From a virus (lineage: Duplodnaviria > Caudoviricetes): 46,825 nucleotides of DNA. A model generated the notes under the pieces. That model ran no database searches. It was not told the origin of the DNA and saw nothing but the letters and a program-made list of their open reading frames with translations. Position numbers and translations under genes: made by a program. Every line of letters begins with the position of its first letter. Position 1 is the stretch's first letter. Location: IMG/VR virus record IMGVR_UViG_3300037045_000356, positions 1 through 46,825 of that record; one strand, written 5' to 3'. Positions 1 to 46,486 of this stretch are shown here, piece by piece.

Positions 1-1164
1 TTACTCAACTATGTGAGCAGGTTGGTGCGCATTTATGTGATTCAGAAATCCCTTTAATACGGCATCATCGAGCCAGTCAACATATTGCCTCATTGCTTCT
101 AACTGAGTATGAATATATATGGCTGTTGTTTTATTAGTTTCTTTGGGTCCATGACCTAATACATCTGTTATCATTTTATCACTGGCTCCAGCATTGTGCA
201 TAGAGCTTGCGAAAAAATGTCTACAAGCATGAAACGTTGGTTCACCCGGAAACTCCAAATCCTTAATGGTCTTGGTAAATTTGTCCGTAAGATAGTGAGG
301 CAAATAGGGTCGTCCATCTTCCCATGCCAATACATATTGCTCGTCATTGTACTCCTTTTTATATACAGCCTTATGGGCTTCTTGGTTATTCTTATGCCAT
401 TCTAATACCTTTGCTAACCCAGGCGTAAGGGGAACATATCTTTCCGTTTTGTTTTTAGTTGGACCTAAAACGTGTTTGCCATTTTCTTTCTTGCGTGCCT
501 TGTGGATAAACACTGTCATTTTGTTAAAATCAATGTCAGGCCAACGTAAGCCGCAAGTTTCTCCTGCCCTTGTCCCAGTCATACACGAAATAATAATTGC
601 TATCTGGAGCTTAGCATCCGAGTTCATTATAATATAGGCCATCTGTTCAGAATTAAAGTCATATGGTTTAAAGTCTGACTTTGAGGGCGGTTCTACAGCT
701 GCTAACGGGTTCATGCCGAAGGGTATAATACGATCCTTTACCGCACGGTTATAAGCAGCGTGCAGTATTCTATGGTGATACAACACCGAAGTAGACGAAA
801 GCCCCTGGTCTAACTTGCGATTATAATACCCTTTAACCTCGGCTGGTTTAATCCGGTCAAATTGTTTCTGGCCAATTATGTCTTTAGCTATATGAACCTC
901 TATTGTTTCCTTGTAACTTTCATAAGTTCTAATTGCCAGTGTACGCTTTTTATGCACTTCCAGCCACTGCAGCATGAATTGCTCTAGTGTCATTTTGCCT
1001 TTTGTTGTAATGCCCATTTGGTAAGCTACTTTTAATCTAGCTTCTTCTAGCTTAGCCTCCGGCTTTGATCCATAAAACATAAAGGTTTTTTGGTGACGTT
1101 TATTATTTTCGTCTTTTAATTCAATTACTATTTCCCAACCTTTGCCACGTTTACGGATGCTCAA
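1..1164 (-). CDS. int: Tyrosine recombinase (phage integrase)
   Basis: N-terminal arm-binding region; catalytic R (TGTRAGE), HxxR (FHACRH), LGH and Y (TAIYIH) motifs. Confidence 0.95.
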   Translation of the reverse strand: MSIRKRGKGWEIVIELKDENNKRHQKTFMFYGSKPEAKLEEARLKVAYQMGITTKGKMTLEQFMLQWLEVHKKRTLAIRTYESYKETIEVHIAKDIIGQKQFDRIKPAEVKGYYNRKLDQGLSSTSVLYHHRILHAAYNRAVKDRIIPFGMNPLAAVEPPSKSDFKPYDFNSEQMAYIIMNSDAKLQIAIIISCMTGTRAGETCGLRWPDIDFNKMTVFIHKARKKENGKHVLGPTKNKTERYVPLTPGLAKVLEWHKNNQEAHKAVYKKEYNDEQYVLAWEDGRPYLPHYLTDKFTKTIKDLEFPGEPTFHACRHFFASSMHNAGASDKMITDVLGHGPKETNKTTAIYIHTQLEAMRQYVDWLDDAVLKGFLNHINAHQPAHIVE

Positions 1165-2982: not shown

Positions 2983-3243
2983 GTGAAAAACATGAGGAGT
3001 AAAACACCCCAGCATATAGGTCCTAACATTAGGAGAATACGAAAAGAAAAGGGATTTACGATTACTTTCATTGCAAATAAATTGAGTAAATCCCCGCAAT
3101 GGCTAAGCAATATAGAAAAGTCTCGGAGAGGTATTTCGCCTGATGAACTATATGAGATAGCCCGTATTTTAAATGAAGATATTAATATATTTTTTGAGAA
3201 AACATTAAACGAAGCGTTTAAATATACCGGCACCGACTCCTAA
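2983..3243 (+). CDS. Cro-like XRE HTH regulator
   Basis: IRRIRKEKG...LSNIEKSRR HTH; divergent from the repressor. Confidence 0.85.
   Translation: MKNMRSKTPQHIGPNIRRIRKEKGFTITFIANKLSKSPQWLSNIEKSRRGISPDELYEIARILNEDINIFFEKTLNEAFKYTGTDS
3205..3221. promoter_or_regulatory. Symmetric operator-like site TTAAACG-AAG-CGTTTAA inside the cro 3' end
   Basis: Perfectly symmetric version of the motif repeated at 2876-2977. Confidence 0.6.
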
Positions 3244-3308
3244 TTCCTAGTATCGCACCTAACCAGTGAATTAAACCACCGGTAAATTGTAGCAAGGGAG
3301 GAAGCTTG

Positions 3309-3467
3309 ATGAATTACAAGGATGATCTTAACCAATGCAACAAGTTATACCGCAAACATGTAAGTTTCGCAATGTTCGCCAGAGATAAGATGCCCGAATA
3401 TATAAAACGGTGCGAAGCCTTAGAAAAAGGGATGGCCGAAATTAAGCGGATTATAGATGAGCTGTAG
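3309..3467 (+). CDS. Small hypothetical protein (52 aa, not in ORF track)
   Basis: GGGAGG RBS; open frame MNYKDDLNQC...IIDEL. Confidence 0.6.
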   Translation: MNYKDDLNQCNKLYRKHVSFAMFARDKMPEYIKRCEALEKGMAEIKRIIDEL

Positions 3468-3479
3468 AGGAGGGATAAT

Positions 3480-3752
3480 ATGCCGAGATACCCAAAAAAA
3501 GAAAGACCAGTATATAACGATTATTCAAGTTTGCCCGTAGTCCTTCGCGCTAATCACGTTGTTGATTTTATGGATTGCTGTGAAGCAACAGCACTAAAAT
3601 TAATCCGCCAGTGGGATAAAAAGAAACTGTTTCCAGTTATTTGGTGCGGAAACTCTCCGCGAATCAACCGGGACGCTTTTTTAAATTACTTTAGCGGAGG
3701 GTTAGCCGTCCAGCCCCAGCAGGGGAACCAGAGCCGGGCGGCAGGAGAGTAA
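3480..3752 (+). CDS. Excisionase-like winged-HTH DNA-binding protein
   Basis: LPVVLRANHV...FPVIWCG.SPRINRDAF pattern; position after cro. Confidence 0.6.
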   Translation: MPRYPKKERPVYNDYSSLPVVLRANHVVDFMDCCEATALKLIRQWDKKKLFPVIWCGNSPRINRDAFLNYFSGGLAVQPQQGNQSRAAGE

Positions 3753-19982: not shown

Positions 19983-20621
19983 ATGTTAATAGATTTACTT
20001 GAAATTAGACCTGGGGCTGAAATCGAATATGAGTCTGAGATAGGTACCCACGGAACGCACAGCGGCCATAATAAAACTCGTAAAGGGAGGGTAATCCAGA
20101 TCACGGACAAGGTTATTTCAGTAAAAGGAAAGCTTTACCCGGATTCAATTCTTATCAATGACCTGGTATCAGGCCAGGCCAAAATAATCAGATTGAGGGG
20201 AGAGGATTTTGAGATGGCGGCAAAATTAGTTAATTGGGATGAAATGTGGCCGCTAGTAATGGCAGGAATTAATGCTGGAATGTCCAGTAGAGAAATAGCC
20301 GAACAACTAGGCATTGACAATAAAATTCTGCTTTCAAAACTAGACCGGGAGAAAAAGAAAGGGTTTATTGTTCCAAGAAAAACAGAGCAGACCCCACCCC
20401 CTGATCCGGGACAGGTTGGTAGCCAGGGACCGAATCAGGAGAGCACTGGGCCTGCTGTTGATAGTATACCAGAGACGGAGTTGCCTCGCGCTGATTGGCT
20501 TAATCGTCACTTAGTCGAAGAACTGCAGGAGCGCTGGGTAACAGAGACCATGCGCCAGAGCTTACCTAAGGAAGTTAAACTGGAAATCATTAAAATGCTA
20601 TTGGATATCGAAGTGGCGTAG
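19983..20621 (+). CDS. Hypothetical protein with HTH
   Basis: MSSREIAEQLGI HTH-like segment. Confidence 0.65.
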   Translation: MLIDLLEIRPGAEIEYESEIGTHGTHSGHNKTRKGRVIQITDKVISVKGKLYPDSILINDLVSGQAKIIRLRGEDFEMAAKLVNWDEMWPLVMAGINAGMSSREIAEQLGIDNKILLSKLDREKKKGFIVPRKTEQTPPPDPGQVGSQGPNQESTGPAVDSIPETELPRADWLNRHLVEELQERWVTETMRQSLPKEVKLEIIKMLLDIEVA

Positions 20622-20647
20622 TGCGCAGTCTGTTAAAACTGTGACGT
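20620..20647 (+). repeat. dif-like site 1: AGTGCGCAGTC-TGTTAA-AACTGTGACGT
   Basis: 11-6-11 quasi-palindrome, paired with site 2. Confidence 0.65.
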
Positions 20648-20657
20648 AATCGTATTG

Positions 20658-21491
20658 TTATGTCAATTCACGTTCTAAATAATATAAGTAAGCATAGTTG
20701 GAATTATCCGGTAAAGATATTAGTTTGGGTATATAATTTATTCCTATTCTTATAGCAGATGCAATACCTGTCAGGCCGATGGTCTCTTGCATAGGGATAT
20801 TTTGTGTAGATAAAAAAATAGGAAGTGCGATAGGTGCTAACTCTGAGATTAACTGAACTTTAACAGAACTCAAGAACCTTTTAATCTTTGATTCCATCAT
20901 AACCTTATGTAGAGTGGAAATATTATAGTCAATTTCGGCTATTATTTCGGCACTGGTGCTAAGTATATCTGTAGACATATTTAATTGCGAATAAAAATCA
21001 TCCATTAACTTCCTAAATTGCATTAGTTCATCTTTTCTTTTTACCTTAAATTCTAAAATATCATTAAGGGGGACGTCCGTTGCTGGAATCGGCAAACAAT
21101 CGCATAAATCAACTTCAATTGCAGTGGATATGGTACTAATGCTATCTGGGAATAAAAGTTTTGGTCCATTCTGTGCAATAGACCATTCTTCCCCAAGATT
21201 TTTTTTGTTAATCTTTAGGGCTTCCGCCTGTGCTACAGAAAATAATAAGTCTGGTGTGCCATGAAAGGGGAACTGTACTTTTGTCCTTTTTAGAATACCG
21301 GCATCTTCCAAAAAGTCTAAGTCTGGATTACCTTGAAAACGAATAAAACCGGAATCAGGAAAATCTAGTATGTCCCAATACAGCAAATAACGACGAAGCT
21401 CAACATTGTCAATGTTTGCAGAGAATGAAAATGAATTATCTGTAATATTTTTGGCAGGAGGTATTATTAAACCACGACTCAAAAAAGTCAC
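20658..21491 (-). CDS. AT-rich moron protein (DUF6236-like); probable start TTG 21482
   Basis: RGLII...LRRYLLYWD and VPLNDILEFKVKRKDEL motifs; antisense orientation with its own promoter. Confidence 0.7.
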   Translation of the reverse strand: MTFLSRGLIIPPAKNITDNSFSFSANIDNVELRRYLLYWDILDFPDSGFIRFQGNPDLDFLEDAGILKRTKVQFPFHGTPDLLFSVAQAEALKINKKNLGEEWSIAQNGPKLLFPDSISTISTAIEVDLCDCLPIPATDVPLNDILEFKVKRKDELMQFRKLMDDFYSQLNMSTDILSTSAEIIAEIDYNISTLHKVMMESKIKRFLSSVKVQLISELAPIALPIFLSTQNIPMQETIGLTGIASAIRIGINYIPKLISLPDNSNYAYLYYLERELT

Positions 21492-21560: not shown

Positions 21561-21588
21561 AGTGCGCAGTTCAAAGATTAAGCGACGT
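21561..21588 (+). repeat. dif-like site 2: AGTGCGCAGTT-CAAAGA-TTAAGCGACGT
   Basis: Same arms and spacing as site 1. Confidence 0.65.
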
Positions 21589-22224: not shown

Positions 22225-22285
22225 GTAAAATCATAATTGCTACCCGTCACTATAATTAAGTGGCGGGTAGCAATTATGATTTTAC
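22225..22285. repeat. 27-bp-arm inverted repeat
   Basis: GTAAAATCATAATTGCTACCCGTCACT-7 nt-AGTGGCGGGTAGCAATTATGATTTTAC, one mismatch. Confidence 0.9.
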
Positions 22286-35368: not shown

Positions 35369-38076
35369 TTACTATTGGCGAACTAATTGTAAGAATTGGG
35401 GCTGATGCATCAGGCTTAGCCAGAGGTATAGAAAACTCGCAAAGAAGCTTGCAGAATATGGGAGAGAGAATGGAGCGCATTGGCAAGACGATGACAGCGG
35501 CCATTACCCTTCCCATCGCGGCAGCTGGCATAGCTGCATTTAAGTATGCATCGGATTTGAGTGAAAACATTAATAAAGCAGATGTTGCATTCAAAGAAAA
35601 CGCCAAAGAAGTTGAAGCTTGGAGCGGTACCACGCTGGAGAGCTTTGGCATAGCAAAAGTAACATCCCTTGATATGGCAGCTACTTTTGGAGACATGGCC
35701 ACCAGCATGGGTATTAACACAGCCAATGCAGCAACTATGAGTACATCGCTTGTCGGTTTAGCTGGCGACTTAGCTTCGTTTAAAAACATTAGAATTGATG
35801 TAGCTAATACAGCCCTAAATGGAGTTTTCACAGGGGAAACAGAATCCTTGAAACAGTTGGGAATAGTCATGACTCAGGCAAATTTAGATGAGTATGCCCT
35901 CAGTAAAGGCATTAAGATTAAGACTCAGGACATGAACCAGGCAAGCCAAGTGCAGTTACGGTATGCCTATATAATGGAGAAAACCACAAATGCACAGGGA
36001 GACTTTATCCGTACAGGTGGCGGGGCTGCTAACCAGATGAGGATATTTCAGGAGAGTATGAAAGAGCTTGGGGCAACAATAGGTACCAAGTTATTGCCAA
36101 TAATCACCCCGATAATAACAAAACTAAATCAATGGGTACAGGCTTTTGCTGGGTTAGATGAGCGATCACAAAAAATTATCCTGGTGGTTGCTGGTATAGC
36201 AGCGGCTATAGGTCCCGTTATACTTATTGTGGGGTCGCTTATCAGCGCAGTAAGTACAATTATAGGAGTATTCACAGCGGCATCCGCGGCTATAGCTGCA
36301 GCAGGAGGAGCCATTGCTATATTAACAGGGCCAATTGGAATAACAATTGCGGTTGTTGCAGGTCTAATTGCTGTCGGCGTTTTATTATACAAAAATTGGG
36401 ATATGGTAAAAATTAAGACACTGCAAGCATGGGGAGATATTAAGTCAGTTGTGCTGGGGAATGTATCTGCTTTAGTGGGTGGTATAGCAGTGTTGTTTGA
36501 TACTGTCGGACTTGATAATTATGCAGCTAAAGCCAGGGCGGCCCAAGCATCTCTTGCGGTATCGATTGACATGGAAAAAGAGCTACGCCACAGACGAGGC
36601 GTAGCAGAGTTATTCATAGGAACAAGTTCTTCTGTGTCAAAGGCTCCAGATATAGAGACCCCAAAAGCATTTGTACCCGACCTGTCAGGAATAACGGCTG
36701 CGGCAGATACTTCTAAAAAAGCTGCCGAGGATACCCGTACTGAGTGGGCAAAAACTGCTGACTTATTAGGCATTCAGTTGCAAGAAATAACCTCACAGTT
36801 TGAGGTTGCGGCCAATACTCAGAAAATGAGTGGTGATAAAGTAGCAGAATTTGCTGTGAAAACTGATGGATTAAATAAGCAAATGGAACTGCAGAAACAA
36901 ATTGTACAGGCAGTAAACAGTGATTATATTGTGGGCCTTAACAATGCCAAGTTAACCATTGAAGAAAAAGAAAAGCTACGGCTAAAAGTGGAACAGGAAC
37001 GCAAGGCCTTATCCGATCTGGAAGTTCAACAATATGATAACGTTCAAGCTCAAAAAGCTATGGCAAAGTCACTCTCAGACCTTTCTAGCAAAGTAGTTGA
37101 GGTTAGGGATAAGTTTAATAATGATATGGCTCAAGCTCTTGCTGACTATCAAAAGCAAGTTGCCACAGTTAATTCTAAACTCCTGACCGATGAGCAAAAT
37201 TTAACTCAAGCGTATGAAAGAACATTAAAGCAGCGAACAGATGCATTATCTAACTTTGTGGGTCTCTTTGATGCGGTGACTAGTAAATCTGTCACAGGTA
37301 ATCAGTTATTATCTAACCTGCAAGGACAGGTCGACACTTTTGGGCAATGGCAGGGGAACATTAATGCACTAGCGACAAAAGGGATCGATGAAGGATTATT
37401 GGCAGAACTTAGAGAGATGGGCCCGTCAGCGGCCTCAGAGATTGCAGCGCTTAATACATTAAGTGCTCCGGAACTAGCCCAATATGTTGCTCTTTGGCAA
37501 GAAAAATCAAACATGGCCAGGGCATCAGCTCAGGTAGAGTTGGAGAGTCAGAGGGTTGAAACCATAAATAAGATAGCTCAGCTCCGATCTGAGGCAGCAG
37601 TACAATTAGAAGCTTATAAGGTTGAATGGGAAAAGAAAAACGCTGAAATTAGGGCTAATACACAGAGGGAATTAGCTATAATTGCTAAAGAGTATGAAGA
37701 TATTACTGGTAAAAGCTTTTCTCAAGGTGCTTTATTGGTAAGTAACTTTGCAACCGGTATGGAATCTCAGTTTGATAGGTTACAATCAGCTATAAGTAAC
37801 ATGTATGCAATTGTTGGAGCTGGTGCTCCATCGGTTCAGGTATCTTCGGTTAGCAATGTCACAAGCATTCCTAAATTAGCATCAGGTACTAACAATGTTC
37901 CAGAAGATATGTTGGCCATAATTCACAAAGGAGAGGCGGTAGTACCGGCACCATATAATAAAGGTACAAGCGGTACCACAATAGGAGATATTTATGTTAC
38001 CGGCAGTAATGCAGATGAGATATGGGAAAAACTAAAACGGGAACTGACATCCAAAGGGGTGAAGATCAGTGCCTAG
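35365..38076 (+). CDS. Tape measure protein; probable ATA start at 35365
   Basis: TIGELIVRIGAD N-terminus upstream of the annotated TTG; helical/hydrophobic repeats; LASGT...IIHKGEAVVP C-terminus. Confidence 0.9.
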   Translation: MVTIGELIVRIGADASGLARGIENSQRSLQNMGERMERIGKTMTAAITLPIAAAGIAAFKYASDLSENINKADVAFKENAKEVEAWSGTTLESFGIAKVTSLDMAATFGDMATSMGINTANAATMSTSLVGLAGDLASFKNIRIDVANTALNGVFTGETESLKQLGIVMTQANLDEYALSKGIKIKTQDMNQASQVQLRYAYIMEKTTNAQGDFIRTGGGAANQMRIFQESMKELGATIGTKLLPIITPIITKLNQWVQAFAGLDERSQKIILVVAGIAAAIGPVILIVGSLISAVSTIIGVFTAASAAIAAAGGAIAILTGPIGITIAVVAGLIAVGVLLYKNWDMVKIKTLQAWGDIKSVVLGNVSALVGGIAVLFDTVGLDNYAAKARAAQASLAVSIDMEKELRHRRGVAELFIGTSSSVSKAPDIETPKAFVPDLSGITAAADTSKKAAEDTRTEWAKTADLLGIQLQEITSQFEVAANTQKMSGDKVAEFAVKTDGLNKQMELQKQIVQAVNSDYIVGLNNAKLTIEEKEKLRLKVEQERKALSDLEVQQYDNVQAQKAMAKSLSDLSSKVVEVRDKFNNDMAQALADYQKQVATVNSKLLTDEQNLTQAYERTLKQRTDALSNFVGLFDAVTSKSVTGNQLLSNLQGQVDTFGQWQGNINALATKGIDEGLLAELREMGPSAASEIAALNTLSAPELAQYVALWQEKSNMARASAQVELESQRVETINKIAQLRSEAAVQLEAYKVEWEKKNAEIRANTQRELAIIAKEYEDITGKSFSQGALLVSNFATGMESQFDRLQSAISNMYAIVGAGAPSVQVSSVSNVTSIPKLASGTNNVPEDMLAIIHKGEAVVPAPYNKGTSGTTIGDIYVTGSNADEIWEKLKRELTSKGVKISA

Positions 38077-39214
38077 AAAAATTACAATTGCAGGAGTCGA
38101 TAGAACCGCTGATGTGCTACTCAGCGGTTTTTCTATTACCCAGAACCTTACCTATCAAGAAGATACTTGTAGCTTAACTATCAAGTCAGGAACTAAACCC
38201 TCAACTGGTGACGAAATTGTTATCTTAGAAGGAACTACTAAATTATTTGGCGGTATTATTGACCAGGTAAAGGACCAGACAGCTAATAGCAATGTTCGCT
38301 ACCAATGTGAGGCCAGAGACTACACTTTTCATATGAATAAACGGCTGGTAGTAGAGTCTTACGAGTCAGGCCGGGAAGCTCTTTCGAGGGCGGATGAAAT
38401 ACTGGTGGATATAGTTACTCGGTATTGTACCGGATTTACAACTAAAAACGTGCAAACTACATCTCCTGAGGTTGATGCTATCTTGTTTGATTACATAGCC
38501 CCATCTGAATGTTTTAAGCAGCTTTGCGGTTATGTGGGATGGCAGTGGTATGTTGACTATGAGAGGGACATATGGTTTTTTAACCCGGCGGATCTAAATA
38601 AGCCTGCTCCCATGGTAATAAATGGTGCAGCCAGCTTTCGCAACTTTAATCATGATCTAGACATGCAGAATTTAAGGAACCGTGTCTATGTGAGGGGCGG
38701 CACCTACTTGTCGGACTTCGTTACATATGAATATAAAGCTGATGGGAAACAACGAGCCTGGATACTCCCCTATAAACCTCATAAATTGACTGTGAGTATT
38801 GGCGGGAGCGCTCCAATTACTCTCGGTATTGAAAACGTAGATGATGAGACAACGAAAACATGGATGATGAACTATGAGGAGAAGGTTGCTAGGTTGGCTT
38901 CCGGTGAGGCAGACATTGTTGCTGGCACCACTGTATCCTTTACTTTTAAATTTGATCTCGATGTAATTACTCTAGTAGATGATACTGAATCGCAAGCGGC
39001 TATCGCGGCTATTCAGGGTGGAGATGGAATTTACGAATATTCTCTGGTTGATGATACTCTGATCACGATCGAAGCAGCTGAGGCAGCTGGACAAGCCGAT
39101 CTGCGAGACAATGCTAATCCAATAGTAAAAGGTAGCTTTGATACTGAACATGTAATTAAGGAAACAACTTGGGCCGATCATAAAAAGATAACATGGGCAG
39201 ATATGAGGGGGTAG
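38069..39214 (+). CDS. Tail tip/hub protein, N-terminal part
   Basis: Follows the tape measure; LFGGII, WYVDYERDIWFF, NRVYVRGG. Confidence 0.75.
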   Translation: MPRKITIAGVDRTADVLLSGFSITQNLTYQEDTCSLTIKSGTKPSTGDEIVILEGTTKLFGGIIDQVKDQTANSNVRYQCEARDYTFHMNKRLVVESYESGREALSRADEILVDIVTRYCTGFTTKNVQTTSPEVDAILFDYIAPSECFKQLCGYVGWQWYVDYERDIWFFNPADLNKPAPMVINGAASFRNFNHDLDMQNLRNRVYVRGGTYLSDFVTYEYKADGKQRAWILPYKPHKLTVSIGGSAPITLGIENVDDETTKTWMMNYEEKVARLASGEADIVAGTTVSFTFKFDLDVITLVDDTESQAAIAAIQGGDGIYEYSLVDDTLITIEAAEAAGQADLRDNANPIVKGSFDTEHVIKETTWADHKKITWADMRG

Positions 39215-39218
39215 GACA

Positions 39219-39995
39219 GTGAGGTACAGTACGAATTACGGGCTATATTTACCTGATTATGTTGACGTGGCTGACATTGATAATATAAACGATAACATGG
39301 AGACTGTTGATACTTTACTAAAAGCATTAGCTGATGTTGATAGTGGATTGGCATCGACTGTTGCTACGCATTCAGCTAATACTACGACAGCACATGGGGC
39401 TGTATCTGCTGCTACTGCTAGTAAAATTATGATAAGGGACGCTGCTGGTCGGGCTAAGGTTGTGGGGGCTGCTGTAGCTAGTGATATTGCTATTTTGTCT
39501 GATGTGACCGGGAATGTTAATAATACCCCGACAGCGGGGGAGACTACCAAGGCTGCTAGTAGCAATTCAGTTGCTGTACATTTGGCTGATACTACGTCAG
39601 CACATGGGGCTGCAACAACAGCTACTTCTAATAAAATCGCTAGGCGGAATGCAGAAGGTAAATTATTGGCTATTAATAATCCTTATACCACGAATGGCGT
39701 ATGGGCAACTGATGAATATAAAATCGGTGCTAGTGTTGCAAGCGGGGGTACTTTGGTCAGCGATACGGCATTAAGTAATGGCCAATATTTATTATTTGTA
39801 GCATATCAAACAGGTGGCGATTCTGGCGATGTTGGTTTTTATAATCTAGGCAGATGGGGTACAACAGCTATTATTGACACTCTCGCCACCGCAACTAATA
39901 TAGCAATAAGTGTTAATGGTTCGTATAAAGTTGTGGCCACAAACAACACAGGAGGAGTCGCAACTATACAAATTATTTTAATAAAAATAATATAG
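39219..39995 (+). CDS. Tail fibre / receptor-binding protein
   Basis: TNYGLYLP...INDNMETVD fibre N-terminus; two H...AHG repeats. Confidence 0.75.
   Translation: MRYSTNYGLYLPDYVDVADIDNINDNMETVDTLLKALADVDSGLASTVATHSANTTTAHGAVSAATASKIMIRDAAGRAKVVGAAVASDIAILSDVTGNVNNTPTAGETTKAASSNSVAVHLADTTSAHGAATTATSNKIARRNAEGKLLAINNPYTTNGVWATDEYKIGASVASGGTLVSDTALSNGQYLLFVAYQTGGDSGDVGFYNLGRWGTTAIIDTLATATNIAISVNGSYKVVATNNTGGVATIQIILIKII
39363..39390 (+). repeat. dif-like site 3 (in-frame): GCTACGCATTC-AGCTAA-TACTACGACAG
   Basis: Matches the reverse complement of site 5 in both arms. Confidence 0.55.
39573..39600 (+). repeat. dif-like site 4 (in-frame): GCTGTACATTT-GGCTGA-TACTACGTCAG
   Basis: 210 bp after site 3; encodes AVHLADTTS. 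Confidence 0.5.
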
Positions 39996-40006
39996 GAGGT
40001 CAGAAC

Positions 40007-40231
40007 ATGCTTAAATATAGCATTGACAATGATTTTGTAACCAAATATAGCTTTGATGGTAAGCGAAAAACTCAGATAAAAATAGACAAAGAATCTGAGG
40101 AATATAAGGCTATAAAAATAGAAACCAATAATTTCACCGAAAATATGGATTTTCCCCCAACGGTAGAAGAAAAGTTACAATCAGATATTGATTATTTAGC
40201 AATTATGATGGGGGTGGATTTAAGTGTTTGA
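40007..40231 (+). CDS. Fibre-associated small protein
   Basis: PTVEEKLQSDIDYLAIMMGVDL C-terminus typical of genes preceding XkdX. Confidence 0.7.
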   Translation: MLKYSIDNDFVTKYSFDGKRKTQIKIDKESEEYKAIKIETNNFTENMDFPPTVEEKLQSDIDYLAIMMGVDLSV

Positions 40232-40367
40232 TAAGGTTAAAAATTATTATGATACTGGCTTATGGACACTACAAAGAGTCTGGAATGTCGTGGGAAAAAC
40301 AAATGGATTAACAGAGGCCGAATACCAGCAAATAACTGGTCTTGTCTATCCGGCTATGTCGCAGTAG
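40224..40367 (+). CDS. XkdX family protein (47 aa)
   Basis: FDKVKNYYDTGLW...LTEAEYQQITG. Confidence 0.85.
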   Translation: MFDKVKNYYDTGLWTLQRVWNVVGKTNGLTEAEYQQITGLVYPAMSQ

Positions 40368-40383
40368 ACAAATTATGCGCAGC
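40356..40383 (-). repeat. dif-like site 5 (inverted): GCTGCGCATAA-TTTGTC-TACTGCGACAT
   Basis: Left arm 10/11 identical to the E. coli dif XerC arm GGTGCGCATAA; overlaps the XkdX stop. Confidence 0.65.
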
Positions 40384-40402: not shown

Positions 40403-40771
40403 GTGGCAAGTTGGGGTAGTTTTTTACCTAACTATTGGAGTCCGGGACAATTAGTTAAAGTAGATCTTCCAGTTCAGGGATTAAGTAATAGTTTTGTGGT
40501 TCAAAAAGTCACAATTACACCGACTAGTGATACCCTCTGGACTTTTAAAATAGCTTATGGTGGTCGACTTATAGGCATAGCCGACTTTCTTAAGGCATTA
40601 GTCAGTTCTCAACAAAAGAAGAAGCTAAACGAAACCACGGTTCTGCATAAGTTTGTTTACGGAACTGACACTACTAATATAACAGATGTGATTTTAAGTA
40701 CCGCACGTACACCACCATGGATTTGTGGGGATGCAGATGCGATTTGCGGTTTTATTGTGTGTAGCACATAG
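40403..40771 (+). CDS. Probable C-terminal part of the split tail hub protein
   Basis: WSPGQLVKVDLP...VQKVTI beta-barrel motif; same frame as the 38069 gene; own AGGAGG RBS. Confidence 0.65.
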   Translation: MASWGSFLPNYWSPGQLVKVDLPVQGLSNSFVVQKVTITPTSDTLWTFKIAYGGRLIGIADFLKALVSSQQKKKLNETTVLHKFVYGTDTTNITDVILSTARTPPWICGDADAICGFIVCST

Positions 40772-42599: not shown

Positions 42600-43631
42600 A
42601 TGGAACTAATTAATAAAACTGGCTGGGAACCGTCTCCGGACGACGATCGAGACTATCCGCTGCGGGCGTTGCCGGTAAAGTTAGCGGCGCCCCCGATCAG
42701 GGCATCAATAGAGACCTTTGTGGAACCTATGGACAACCAACAGACCAAACCATGGTGTGTTTCTTTCAACGTATGCGATGCGATAGAGGATGCCCTGCGA
42801 ATGCGAGGGACAAAAATCCCCGTGGGAGGACTAAGCAAGGCATACCTATACGCCCGTTGCAAACAACTGGATGGGATACCCAACCAGGACGGCACCTTCA
42901 TCAGGACAGCGCTACAAATTGCAGCCACAGAAGGAATATGCCCTGATTATCTGTGCCCGACAGCCACCTACTTGCAGCAAGACGATCTCCCGGTGATCAC
43001 CTCAGAGATGCGGGCGGCAGCAGCCAACTACAAAATAACTGGGTACGCCAGACTAAAGGACGCAGCAGGATATGCCGACCAAATCCAAATGAAACAAGCG
43101 ATCGCAGCCGGGCAGTTTGTTATCATTGGTAGCTGGGTAGAGGAGGACAACTGGCTCGATGGGGACGACCTGATCTCGGAGCCCAAGGGCAGGATGCTGG
43201 GGGGCCATTGCACCCGACTGTTCGGATACGATAATGAGCAGCATCAAGCAGGATATGTTGGCCTTTACGACGGAGGCAATTCCTGGGGCCCCGAATGGGG
43301 CAACCGGGGTAAATATCACATGACATACAGCTATGTAGCGTGGCGCGATTTAAGCACGGGCACACCGGCGCTGCAGGAGGCCTGGACGTTCACGGTAGCC
43401 GGTGAGATTAGGGCCACAACCCGCGAAATGCCAGCGCCGATGCAGATCATCCCGCCTGGATACACCATGCTCCCCTTCCGGGGCATCTATGAAGCTTTGG
43501 AAGCTCCGGTTGACTGGTACACTAACTCGCAGGGCAAGGCCGTGGCCGTGGCTACCGTCGAGCTTAAGGACCGAACGGTGGTCATAGAGGCCACGCAGGA
43601 CAGCAATACACTCAGGGTATTTCGAACCTAG
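42600..43631 (+). CDS. Papain-like C1 cysteine peptidase with C-terminal copper-amine-oxidase-N-like (surface) domain
   Basis: Q...C (NQQTKPWCV), GGHC, NSWGPEWG catalytic motifs; TMLPFRGIYEAL. Confidence 0.85.
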   Translation: MELINKTGWEPSPDDDRDYPLRALPVKLAAPPIRASIETFVEPMDNQQTKPWCVSFNVCDAIEDALRMRGTKIPVGGLSKAYLYARCKQLDGIPNQDGTFIRTALQIAATEGICPDYLCPTATYLQQDDLPVITSEMRAAAANYKITGYARLKDAAGYADQIQMKQAIAAGQFVIIGSWVEEDNWLDGDDLISEPKGRMLGGHCTRLFGYDNEQHQAGYVGLYDGGNSWGPEWGNRGKYHMTYSYVAWRDLSTGTPALQEAWTFTVAGEIRATTREMPAPMQIIPPGYTMLPFRGIYEALEAPVDWYTNSQGKAVAVATVELKDRTVVIEATQDSNTLRVFRT

Positions 43632-45030: not shown

Positions 45031-45936
45031 ATGGCAGCTAAAATGGTTCGGTTTGATTATTTTCAAATATATGGCATAGGTTATGATAAACGCCATAATG
45101 CTCAATATGAGGATAAGTTTAATATTCAAGGTATATTAGAAAAAGCTTCCAAAATAGATGCCGCAGATAGAACTTACGAATATGGAAATGAGGATTCAAG
45201 GCTTCACTTAGTAGAAGTTCTGAAACCTATTAATAAAACAGATAATATATGGGGCATGCAGTTTATTAGAGTGCGGAAAAATGATAGACCGGGTATTCTG
45301 AAAGATGATGGCAGTTTTGATTATATGGAATTGGCTGATAATGAATATATAGGAGAGGAAGTAGCTGCTTTATATGATTCTGAATTATGTGTAATACTTA
45401 TTCAGAGAAACAAATATAGCCTGTCTCCAACAGGAATTCAAACTTTTTTTGACAGTGCGTGGGAAGAGAATGAAATATTTTTTAAACCTGTGATTACACC
45501 TGAAGTCTTTAATCTTTTAAAGAAAAAGAAGAACTACAGATCAATTCATATTAAATTTGCTAATCTGAGAAGACACCAAGTTGAAGAGGGAAAGACCTTA
45601 TTTGGTATTGCTAAAACGATAAATGATTTTTTACCCATTAACGCAGATTTTAATTTAACCATGGGCAACAATCGTTCACTAGATGGTTTACCAGAAGAAG
45701 AAGTTCTTCAAGCAATTGAATTATACAAAGATGAAAAGGAAGTCACAAAACTTGAAGTTAAGGTTCTAGAAGATGACGGTAGGGTTAATGCTTATGATCT
45801 AATTGAAGACAGAGTACATGATAATAAATCATTTACGTACTCAAGAGAAGCCCTAATTGATTATAAACGAGTAATCGACAGCATGTTAGCAACATATTTA
45901 TTAAGAAGGCCGGATTTACAGATAATGTTTAAGTGA
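45031..45936 (+). CDS. AT-rich moron protein (DUF6731-like)
   Basis: VRFDYFQI, EYIGEEVAALYD...IQRNKYSLS; family recalled, not searched. Confidence 0.65.
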   Translation: MAAKMVRFDYFQIYGIGYDKRHNAQYEDKFNIQGILEKASKIDAADRTYEYGNEDSRLHLVEVLKPINKTDNIWGMQFIRVRKNDRPGILKDDGSFDYMELADNEYIGEEVAALYDSELCVILIQRNKYSLSPTGIQTFFDSAWEENEIFFKPVITPEVFNLLKKKKNYRSIHIKFANLRRHQVEEGKTLFGIAKTINDFLPINADFNLTMGNNRSLDGLPEEEVLQAIELYKDEKEVTKLEVKVLEDDGRVNAYDLIEDRVHDNKSFTYSREALIDYKRVIDSMLATYLLRRPDLQIMFK

Positions 45937-45952
45937 AGGGAGGCTAAATACC

Positions 45953-46486
45953 ATGAAGTTAACAGTAGTATCGCCTCGTTTTATTGAAAAAATATATCCG
46001 ATTACCATTGCATTAATAACTGCAATAATGTGCTATGTGTGTAAATTTAACGTGCTAATAAATAAAGATTTTTCTATTACTCTAAACTCAACTATTAGCG
46101 TGAGTGCCGTAATGGTTGGTTTTATGGCTACTATGGTAGCGGTTTTGGTATCTACGGTCAACACAGTTACATTACAAAGAATACAGGATAATAATGCAAT
46201 GGGGTTACTGCATTCCTATTTCCATTCTGCTTTAATAACTGGTTTTATGCTGGCAATTGGGTCTATAGCAACAAGTATGTTACTTGGAACTAGCGGACTA
46301 AAAGGAGAACGTATTACTACTATATGGGTGTTTATTGCAGTCTACTTTGTCTTTGCGACAGCGAGAGTTATATCAATTATGCTGGCAATTCTACGCTCAA
46401 TTTCTAACGAGAGTACAAACAGGAATGAATCCCAGAGCAGTACAATTCAATCTGACCCCGAAAGAGCTTTTAATGGGTCTTGTTAA
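45953..46486 (+). CDS. Four-TM membrane protein, partner of the upstream gene
   Basis: Four hydrophobic segments; operonic. Confidence 0.75.
   Translation: MKLTVVSPRFIEKIYPITIALITAIMCYVCKFNVLINKDFSITLNSTISVSAVMVGFMATMVAVLVSTVNTVTLQRIQDNNAMGLLHSYFHSALITGFMLAIGSIATSMLLGTSGLKGERITTIWVFIAVYFVFATARVISIMLAILRSISNESTNRNESQSSTIQSDPERAFNGSC

Follow-up and report, generated by a model that had tools for sequence, protein, structure and literature searches.

New receptor-binding ends in temperate phages of Gram-positive anaerobes are usually credited to homologous or illegitimate recombination, to inversion switches or to DGRs. The tail-fibre locus discussed here raises the question of whether such ends can also be exchanged at a DNA site that is carried within the codons of the fibre itself. 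The locus lies in a window of 46,825 nucleotides, which is the whole stretch of DNA that was analysed and constitutes a provirus record, IMGVR_UViG_3300037045_000356, with a CheckV completeness of 79%. Relatives of its baseplate-hub gene were found in records named Syntrophomonadaceae, Peptococcaceae, Heliobacterium, Pelotomaculum and Desulfoscipio, among others. No ORF suggestive of a reverse transcriptase with a template-variable repeat pair was recognised by eye in the ORF lists, and Rfam returned no match. Scans of viral contigs with the single hub or fibre protein as query also gave no matches, and alignments were required.

The fibre gene is followed by two small genes, and three related sites lie in this module (Table 1). 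Each is a near-palindrome of 28 bp, in which two 11-bp arms surround a 6-bp core. The fibre ORF enters site 3 at codon 49 and site 4 at codon 119, and the two cores are 210 bp apart, as the initial annotation of this DNA had described for the two encoded peptides. They open the window's largest direct repeat (68 nt, 79% identity, 210-bp spacing). Between the copies (39360-39428 and 39570-39638), 9 codons differ in the amino acid encoded, and a silent change is seen at only 1 of the 14 that encode the same residue; this identity of 13 codons holds over the whole repeat, not over the arms alone. Site 5 overlaps the XkdX C-terminus, which ends in PAMSQ and the stop. The 74-aa gene between fibre and XkdX belongs to no Pfam or PHROG family. 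Fibre homologs have only segments in common. The tip fold resembles predicted tail-fibre ends (TM 0.69); modelling the tip from its sequence alone gave no usable structure (pLDDT 42.5), a protein search with the tip only returned the query as its sole match, and the fibre N-terminus has no solved relatives by sequence. We infer a role for the fibre in receptor binding.

Table 1. Features of the fibre module, its surroundings and the related sites elsewhere in the window
Feature	Coordinates	Strand	Evidence or score
Prophage tyrosine integrase	1..1164	-	sole PF00589 match in record
Site 1, of the family of sites 3-5; probably site 1 of the initial annotation	20620..20647	+	after late-early gene; 11.8
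DUF6236 gene, between sites 1 and 2	20658..21491	-	PF19749, E 2.5e-26; GC 0.345
Site 2, of the family of sites 3-5	21561..21588	+	second-best place, 16.4
Baseplate hub, N-terminal part, 381 aa, Trp-repeat tail at end	38069..39214	+	61% to P0003
Side tail-fibre gene, 258 aa: N-terminal anchor, site 3-4 shaft segment, tip	39219..39995	+	ORF
Site 3, in frame, ATHSANTTT, 11-6-11, core AGCTAA at 39374-39379	39363..39390	+	
Shaft segment, 210 bp, core of site 3 to core of site 4	39374..39583	+	
Site 4, in frame, AVHLADTTS, core GGCTGA at 39584-39589; left border of tip cassette	39573..39600	+	
Chaperone-like gene (by position only), 74 aa	40007..40231	+	ORF; GC 0.302
XkdX gene; final codons and stop form left arm of site 5	40224..40367	+	PF09693, E 1.8e-13
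Site 5, module-end site, core GACAAA at 40367-40372	40356..40383	+	window's top score
Baseplate hub, C-terminal part, 122 aa, own ribosome-binding-site-like sequence	40403..40771	+	59% to P0003

This module interrupts another gene. The ORFs at 38069-39214 and 40403-40771 are the halves of one hub protein that is encoded by a single gene in most relatives: residues 7-360 of the first align with residues 7-355 of the 488-aa homolog P0003 (61%), and residues 12-119 of the second with its residues 359-466 (59%, E 4e-46). Among 120 listed hub homologs, 88 are plain, uninterrupted proteins, 5 have an insert at this point (2 with Trp repeats), 17 including that of the window stop at it with a Trp-repeat tail, and the other 10 were left unclassed. 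The hub has no solved relatives by sequence; the model of its N-terminal part (pLDDT 84.8) matches hubs of the gp27/Mu gp44 type (E 4e-10 for 3cdd). Different fibre modules occupy the same hub gap in the relatives L022, L029 and L044, and thus the split is a stable trait of the lineage, older than the present cassette. In L022 and L044, a terminal site stands immediately before the second hub half. In L160, the gene that precedes the fibre (3129-3698) also terminates in such a Trp-repeat tail, and the L160 fibre has an N-terminus like that of the window; the tail may therefore serve as a docking peptide for the fibre.

Sites of this kind are not confined to the window. A first arm matrix was made from four non-coding sites of other phages that had been found with a pattern drawn from site 5. 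It ranked position 40356 of the window first, 21561 second (16.4), 39363 third (12.2) and 20620 fourth (11.8), while site 4 was weak on its arms alone (3.6, below the top 10). Four places in the window thus score at least 11.8. Simulated windows contained 0.68 such places on average, and three or more in 3 of 100 cases. Because the four sites had come by way of the site 5 pattern, a second matrix was built on 11 terminal sites whose loci had been retrieved through protein searches. Site 5 then scored 24.6 and the next place in the window 13.4, and none of 100 simulated windows reached 24.6, a result with a residual selection bias in that the first matrix or visual inspection guided the choice of the 11 sites. 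A blind scan of viral contigs with an 18-base pattern taken from site 5 gave two matches, both directly behind fibre modules and both agreeing with site 5 also at the bases left free by the pattern. A 16-base pattern gave eight, of which four are module ends (three distinct sites), one is in frame in a fibre (THKAD), two are inside long tail-like genes and one is unrelated. Among 162 genomes of one class, 8 contained a match, and both matches in G024 fall within fibre modules; a strict pattern had no match in five host-relative genomes. Loci picked by the XkdX Pfam family carried a terminal site scoring at least 8 in 1 of 15 cases, with a weak site in one more. Taken together, sites 3, 4 and 5 are real members of a conserved 11-6-11 site family. 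In L259 (G024:C378), tandem fibre genes with like N-termini carry three in-frame sites and a terminal site.

The fate of these sites in related phages is most clearly seen in loci L295 to L297, which were fetched by their recombinase protein only. Between L296 and L297, identity is 94% over the 600 nt before the in-frame core and 28% over the 90 nt after it; on the right, it is 41% over the 90 nt before the terminal core and 97% over the 600 nt after it. The left core is GGCCGA in each of the two, and the right core is GGACTT in L295, L296 and L297, the first of these being a third allele that joins at the terminal core. Aligned fibres had been expected, from the annotation, to lose identity at the in-frame site and to regain it past the terminal one. 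They do so here, and the tip is exchanged together with the chaperone-like gene and the module's last small gene, as had been proposed.

The window fibre is a mosaic of the same type. Its positions 39361-39590 have 72% nucleotide identity to L155 and 68% to L156, with nothing in common beyond, and thus the common piece extends from site 3 to the core of site 4. In P0126, the same tip (44%) follows directly at HLAD on a different N-terminus, the site 3-4 piece being absent, and the homology of the two tips runs from about site 4 to the C-terminus. The homology of the window with L155 and with L181 starts at site 3. Nine further steps in identity across in-frame cores, in hand-picked pairs, were recorded: 0.94 to 0.36 (L014/L022), 0.88 to 0.24 at one site and, farther along, 0.46 to 0.87 at another (L084/L016), 0.78 to 0.29 (L155/L156), 0.40 to 0.77 (L155/L116), 0.71 to 0.31 across site 4 and 0.34 to 0.70 across site 3 (window/L155), 0.64 to 0.40 (window/L156) and 0.43 to 0.74 (window/L181). 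A tenth pair, window/L044 at site 5, is unrelated on either side. The L084/L016 pair also supports the annotation's idea of an in-frame exchange of segments, in that a shaft piece between in-frame sites is replaced. An all-against-all comparison of 99 fibre-like ORFs placed 12 of 296 breakpoints at a site scoring at least 8 (null mean 4.1, maximum 10 of 300), counted over pairs that are not independent and with most breakpoints lacking a site; at sites scoring at least 4, the 20 observed against 11.5 expected (maximum 21) are not a clear excess. As judged from these alignments, related phages switch to unrelated fibre tips at these sites.

Base composition gives a less uniform picture. The enclosed DNA had been described as AT-rich, which is true of 39363-40383 as a whole (GC 0.396 against a late-region mean of 0.445, 4th percentile) and false of the site 3-4 segment (0.486), the low value being mostly due to the chaperone-like gene. 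The L296/L297 cassette is instead richer in GC than its flanks (0.42 versus 0.33-0.36), and thus the signal is one of foreign composition, not of AT richness as such.

The orientation of the sites constrains how such exchanges could occur. Relative to sites 3 and 4, the arms of site 5 are inverted and its core is direct. Against the in-frame matrix, the site 5 arms score 26.5 inverted and 8.3 direct, and the arms of the 12 terminal sites fit better inverted in 7 cases and direct in 4, with 1 tie. The cores fit the direct orientation in 12/12 terminal and 21/21 in-frame sites, and all 12 terminal cores begin with G. Within the window, the cores of sites 4 and 5 match at 3 of 6 positions in direct and 0 of 6 in inverted register. 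Thus, the claim that an inverted site closes the module at the XkdX stop is correct as to its position over the stop and, as to inversion, for the arms only. Tyrosine recombinases exchange strands inside the 6-bp centre (PMC5357621), and recombination at pdif sites requires identical or near-identical spacers (PMC13141974). Since strand exchange occurs in the core and the cores of sites 4 and 5 have no inverted match, inversion between these sites is unlikely, which argues against the inversion of 39.4-40.4 kb that had been suggested.

The explanation that we favour, with a probability of about 0.6, is that the sites are crossover sites of an XerA-like recombinase, and that the cassette of tip, chaperone and XkdX is replaced by two like-with-like crossovers between co-resident phage genomes. 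Direct support comes from the conservation of silent sites, from the junctions on the cores and from the recombinase gene that stands beside the module in relatives. In-frame sites would recombine with in-frame sites, their GGCNGA-type cores keeping the frame through H-x-A-D/E, and terminal sites would recombine with terminal sites through cores of the GGACTT/GACTTA type. A cointegrate formed at one site class and resolved at the other would amount to a cassette swap, and crossing over between two in-frame sites could add, drop or replace pieces of the shaft, such as the 210-bp segment. With cores that differ between its left and right ends, the module would be guarded against inversion and probably against loss. 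For the window record, the enzyme would be supplied in trans or from DNA past the window end. The position of the fibre and the diversity of its tips suggest that the outcome would be a change of host range in one step. Results that count against this explanation include the 14 of 21 recombinase loci that are without a sited module, the two changes that the site-linked enzymes need on the tree, the scarcity of terminal sites at XkdX loci, the small share of breakpoints (12/296) found at sites scoring at least 8, the site 3 boundary of L155 and L156 without site-like codons, the codon identity along the whole window repeat and the absence of any recombination intermediate from contigs of 2-5-fold depth.

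The best-surviving alternative, which nonetheless appears unlikely, treats the in-frame and terminal sites as attL and attR. The cassette between them would enter and leave the genome in circular form, with a length of about 783 bp if bounded by site 4 and 993 bp if bounded by site 3. One palindrome, made up of the outer arms, would be the target, and a second, made up of the inner arms, would be that of the cassette. The uniformly direct cores with their leading G are consistent with this scheme, as are the scores of sites 3 and 4 with the terminal matrix (9.0 and 9.2 direct, 4.0 and 0.3 inverted) and the Rin receptor-binding protein gene, for which PMC6109161 describes two direct sites in the same places. 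However, the leading G is forced by the TAG stop in several terminal sites, the window cores match at only half of their positions, and the two ends of the L296/L297 cassette keep different cores through the swap. Additionally, no empty site or circle junction was present in the loci listed or in the contigs of 2-5-fold depth.

A second alternative, which we consider improbable, dispenses with a DNA site altogether. Here, the H-x-A-D/E peptide would belong to a structural His-containing fibre repeat at which homologous or micro-homologous swaps occur along a protein boundary, and the resemblance in DNA would be inherited. The silent positions, which bear on this reading, were analysed by recoding each motif with its amino acids kept and synonymous codons drawn from the usage of the locus. 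Among 34 H-x-A/S-D/E/N motifs in Bacillota fibre genes (2 found by DNA pattern, two loci included after the motif had been seen, and several from sister phages), 24 score above 95% of their recodings (p<=0.05), with a mean z of 2.43. Site-like codons were found in only 1 of 42 motifs in non-fibre genes and, for the same repeat in other phages, in 3 of 60 copies. The His codon is CAT in all 34 fibre motifs, versus 18 of 42 in non-fibre genes. In the window, site 3 has a z of 3.98 (0 of 1000 recodings reach its score) and site 4 a z of 2.88 (p=0.01). The synonymous-site conservation anticipated by the annotation is therefore present in the fibres. In L155 and L156, the His of the motif has become Leu while the DNA site is retained, which counts against a purely structural repeat; these two also have the boundary at site 3 in common with no site-like codons there (p 0.26 and 0.08).

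The protein motif is nonetheless real. The repeat H-x7-HGAVSAATASK occurs in other phages with freely varying codons and no site in 57 of 60 copies, and thus is a protein motif in its own right. That these copies still mark module boundaries, and that the codon identity of the two window copies reaches beyond the arms, both favour a protein boundary. On the other side, the same site recurs in non-coding DNA behind the module in unrelated phages, the silent positions are biased towards the site, and the terminal-core junction of L295, L296 and L297 offers no protein homology to be used. From its codon usage, a DNA site is evidently superposed on a protein repeat in one group. Accordingly, the proposal that the HLAD-type peptide is the shadow of a crossover site holds in so far as Bacillota fibres carry a DNA-level site with junctions on its core, and fails in so far as the peptide was taken to be a shadow only.

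The nature of the enzyme can be approached through the gene neighbourhoods. In the window record, the integrase lies outside the candidate recombinase group, on a long separate branch of the tree, and no match to PF00239, the serine invertase family, was found. The absence of a dedicated invertase noted by the annotation thus describes this 79%-complete record accurately and does not extend to the family, in which a group of recombinases of about 335 aa is associated with the sites. Of 21 loci fetched with this group, 7 (L290, L295-L299 and L301) contain a fibre module with in-frame and/or terminal sites, and in L295-L297 the recombinase gene is about 100 bp from the module. In L289, it stands between the fibre module and the lysis genes, and L116 contains a fragment. 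The remaining 14 loci have no sited fibre module, and in 6 of them the gene lies among small or replication-region genes. All three proteins tested pass the NF040815 (XerA) cut-off of 220 bits, with 230.7, 244.3 and 239.9, and the candidate fails the cut-offs for XerC and XerD. The site-linked enzymes need two changes on the recombinase tree. On these sequence grounds, a Xer-like enzyme likely acts on the sites, and a single XerA-like tyrosine recombinase is the likely crossover enzyme. A related integrase is encoded between the tail and holin genes of phiCp-D and TPELB_ph1, and neither phage shows a clear site. L299 has amidase, DUF6731 and membrane-protein genes in common with the right end of the window, followed by the recombinase; this synteny suggests that a recombinase gene may lie past the window end, where the source contig continues for about 8 kb. 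The 21-residue ORF start at the window end did not resemble the recombinase N-terminus above shuffles, and none of the contigs covers that end.

A 278-aa recombinase upstream of the L258 fibre was also considered as the enzyme and rejected, its relatives not being tied to sited fibre modules; it forms its own group on the tree and in G311 occurs among small genes separated by another repeat. In L287 (G311:C47, 4554-7961), an XerA-like recombinase is found among small genes with a different repeated site that has a CTAACGGG core, in an arrangement resembling a cassette array. The CTAACGGG-core motif also precedes the related L258 recombinase gene in a prophage tail region.

It might instead be the host that supplies the activity, with XerC and XerD acting on the sites as they do at pdif in Acinetobacter. 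The 11-6-11 geometry is the same (PMC5357621), one arm approximates the left arm of a predicted Heliobacterium dif (PMC3025954), and many carriers, the window record included, have no adjacent recombinase. Sites of the pdif type keep a XerD arm of the form TTATGT(T/A)AA (PMC13141974), and this arm is present in 8/8 of the predicted clostridial dif sites listed in PMC3025954, as opposed to 0/33 of the sites described here. A single XerA-like gene also adjoins the module in seven loci, and the host enzymes are very improbable agents. Least credible of all is a Gin/Rin-type phase variation with sites 3/4 and 5 as the inverted repeats of an invertible segment, since the fit of the arms in inverted register, in the window and in 7/12 terminal sites, is countered by the lack of any inverted core match, by the lack of a minus-strand spare tip among the window ORFs, such that flipping would only destroy the tip, and by the lack of a flipped allele in three split relatives that span the module.

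Short contigs from two coal metagenome runs, 99% identical to the window and of depth 2-5, were inspected for the 210-bp deletion and for inversion. No piece spans the module, and no joint falls at a site. The opposite-strand joints observed are two, 39491/40048 and 40963/42670, both at other positions, and one loose contig end matches 36.5 kb; these joints and the loose end look like amplification chimeras.

Several known systems share parts of this arrangement, and the comparisons made here draw on excerpts of the papers cited. In Acinetobacter, pdif modules likewise have 28-bp sites with a 6-bp spacer and a gene module between them (PMC13141974). Their flanking arms are inverted (PMC13141974), as are those of 7 of the 12 terminal sites here. 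Their replacement, through cointegrate formation and resolution, follows the rule that left spacers are alike and right spacers are alike (PMC13141974), and replaced modules keep like spacers on each side, as do L296, L297 and L295. Unlike pdif modules, the fibre module has one border in coding sequence with the frame kept, its cargo is a part of the virion, and the candidate enzyme is one phage-borne XerA-like protein instead of host XerCD (PMC13141974). The Rin shufflon of Bifidobacterium and Eggerthella prophages places a tyrosine recombinase that lacks an arm domain beside a receptor-binding gene, with one site inside the gene and one after its end, a constant N-terminus and variable C-termini (PMC6109161, PMC8778435). 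Sites 4 and 5 show this layout of sites, with two small genes between; a recombinase distinct from the integrase is absent from the window record and accompanies a sited module in 7 of the 21 loci. Rin, however, uses short asymmetric repeats of 8-11 bp, stored inverted spare tips and inversion within one genome (PMC6109161, PMC8778435), whereas the present sites are 28-bp near-palindromes with class-specific cores, and the alleles differ between genomes. No stored inverted tips were found at 38-43 kb of the window or in L296 and L297. Archaeal XerA also acts alone on an 11-6-11 imperfect inverted repeat, but there it resolves chromosome dimers at one site (PMC2958812, PMC5357621), whereas the phages considered here have several sites each, which enclose fibre modules. 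In Gin, Cin and Min, an in-frame crossover site in a tail-fibre gene changes the tip by means of a serine invertase and inversion (PMC6109161); the window has neither a PF00239 match nor an invertible alternative tip. The excerpt of PMC5903667 mentions only inversions, in proteobacterial prophages.

By analogy, the module would work like dif-module replacement, and its layout is that of a Rin locus reduced to the active half. It departs from each in a defining respect, from pdif in having no XerD arm and from Rin in having no stored inverted tips. No description of a system of codon-embedded fibre swap sites was found in the open-licence literature. A frame-keeping exchange point that is defined by sequence and common to unrelated phages would add another route to new receptor-binding ends. 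The presence of such a site would also explain the common H-L-A-D/E peptide in fibres and predicts the positions of junctions from sequence alone. This reading lends itself to direct testing, since sequences are available for the candidate enzyme, for either class of site and for natural pairs of alleles (L295, L296 and L297).

A wider and more tentative proposal, to which we give somewhat less than even odds, is that Bacillota phages of different tail types follow a common plug-and-socket standard, with Xer-like sites in fibre codons (H/Q-x-A-D/E, core GGCNGA), a second class of core after the final helper gene and a mobile XerA-like recombinase that acts in cis or in trans. The pool of exchangeable cassettes would then include shafts, tips along with their chaperones and morons such as that between sites 1 and 2, much as with the dif modules of plasmids. 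Sites 1 and 2 stand in direct order around the low-GC DUF6236 gene. No empty allele was found for them in the 162 genomes, in which the enclosed and the flanking protein have one weak match each. A chromosomal site in G034 (L127 1500 / L288 10466) lies among acetyltransferase-like genes, its core and most of its right arm being those of window site 2. Additionally, G079:C1, a 3.2-Mb genome, has 26 dispersed, mostly intergenic palindromes with the same half-site (L130, L134-L154), many of which adjoin further short repeats and are REP- or MITE-like. Elsewhere in the window, a 27-bp inverted repeat (22225-22285; 96% complementary, 7-nt loop) occupies an intergenic position before the terminase region, and a papain-family (PF00112) protein with a copper-amine-oxidase N-like end (42600-43631) is encoded between the tail and lysis genes. 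A gene pair of DUF6731 and a membrane protein follows the lysis genes both in the window (45031-46486) and in L299 (5267-6726).
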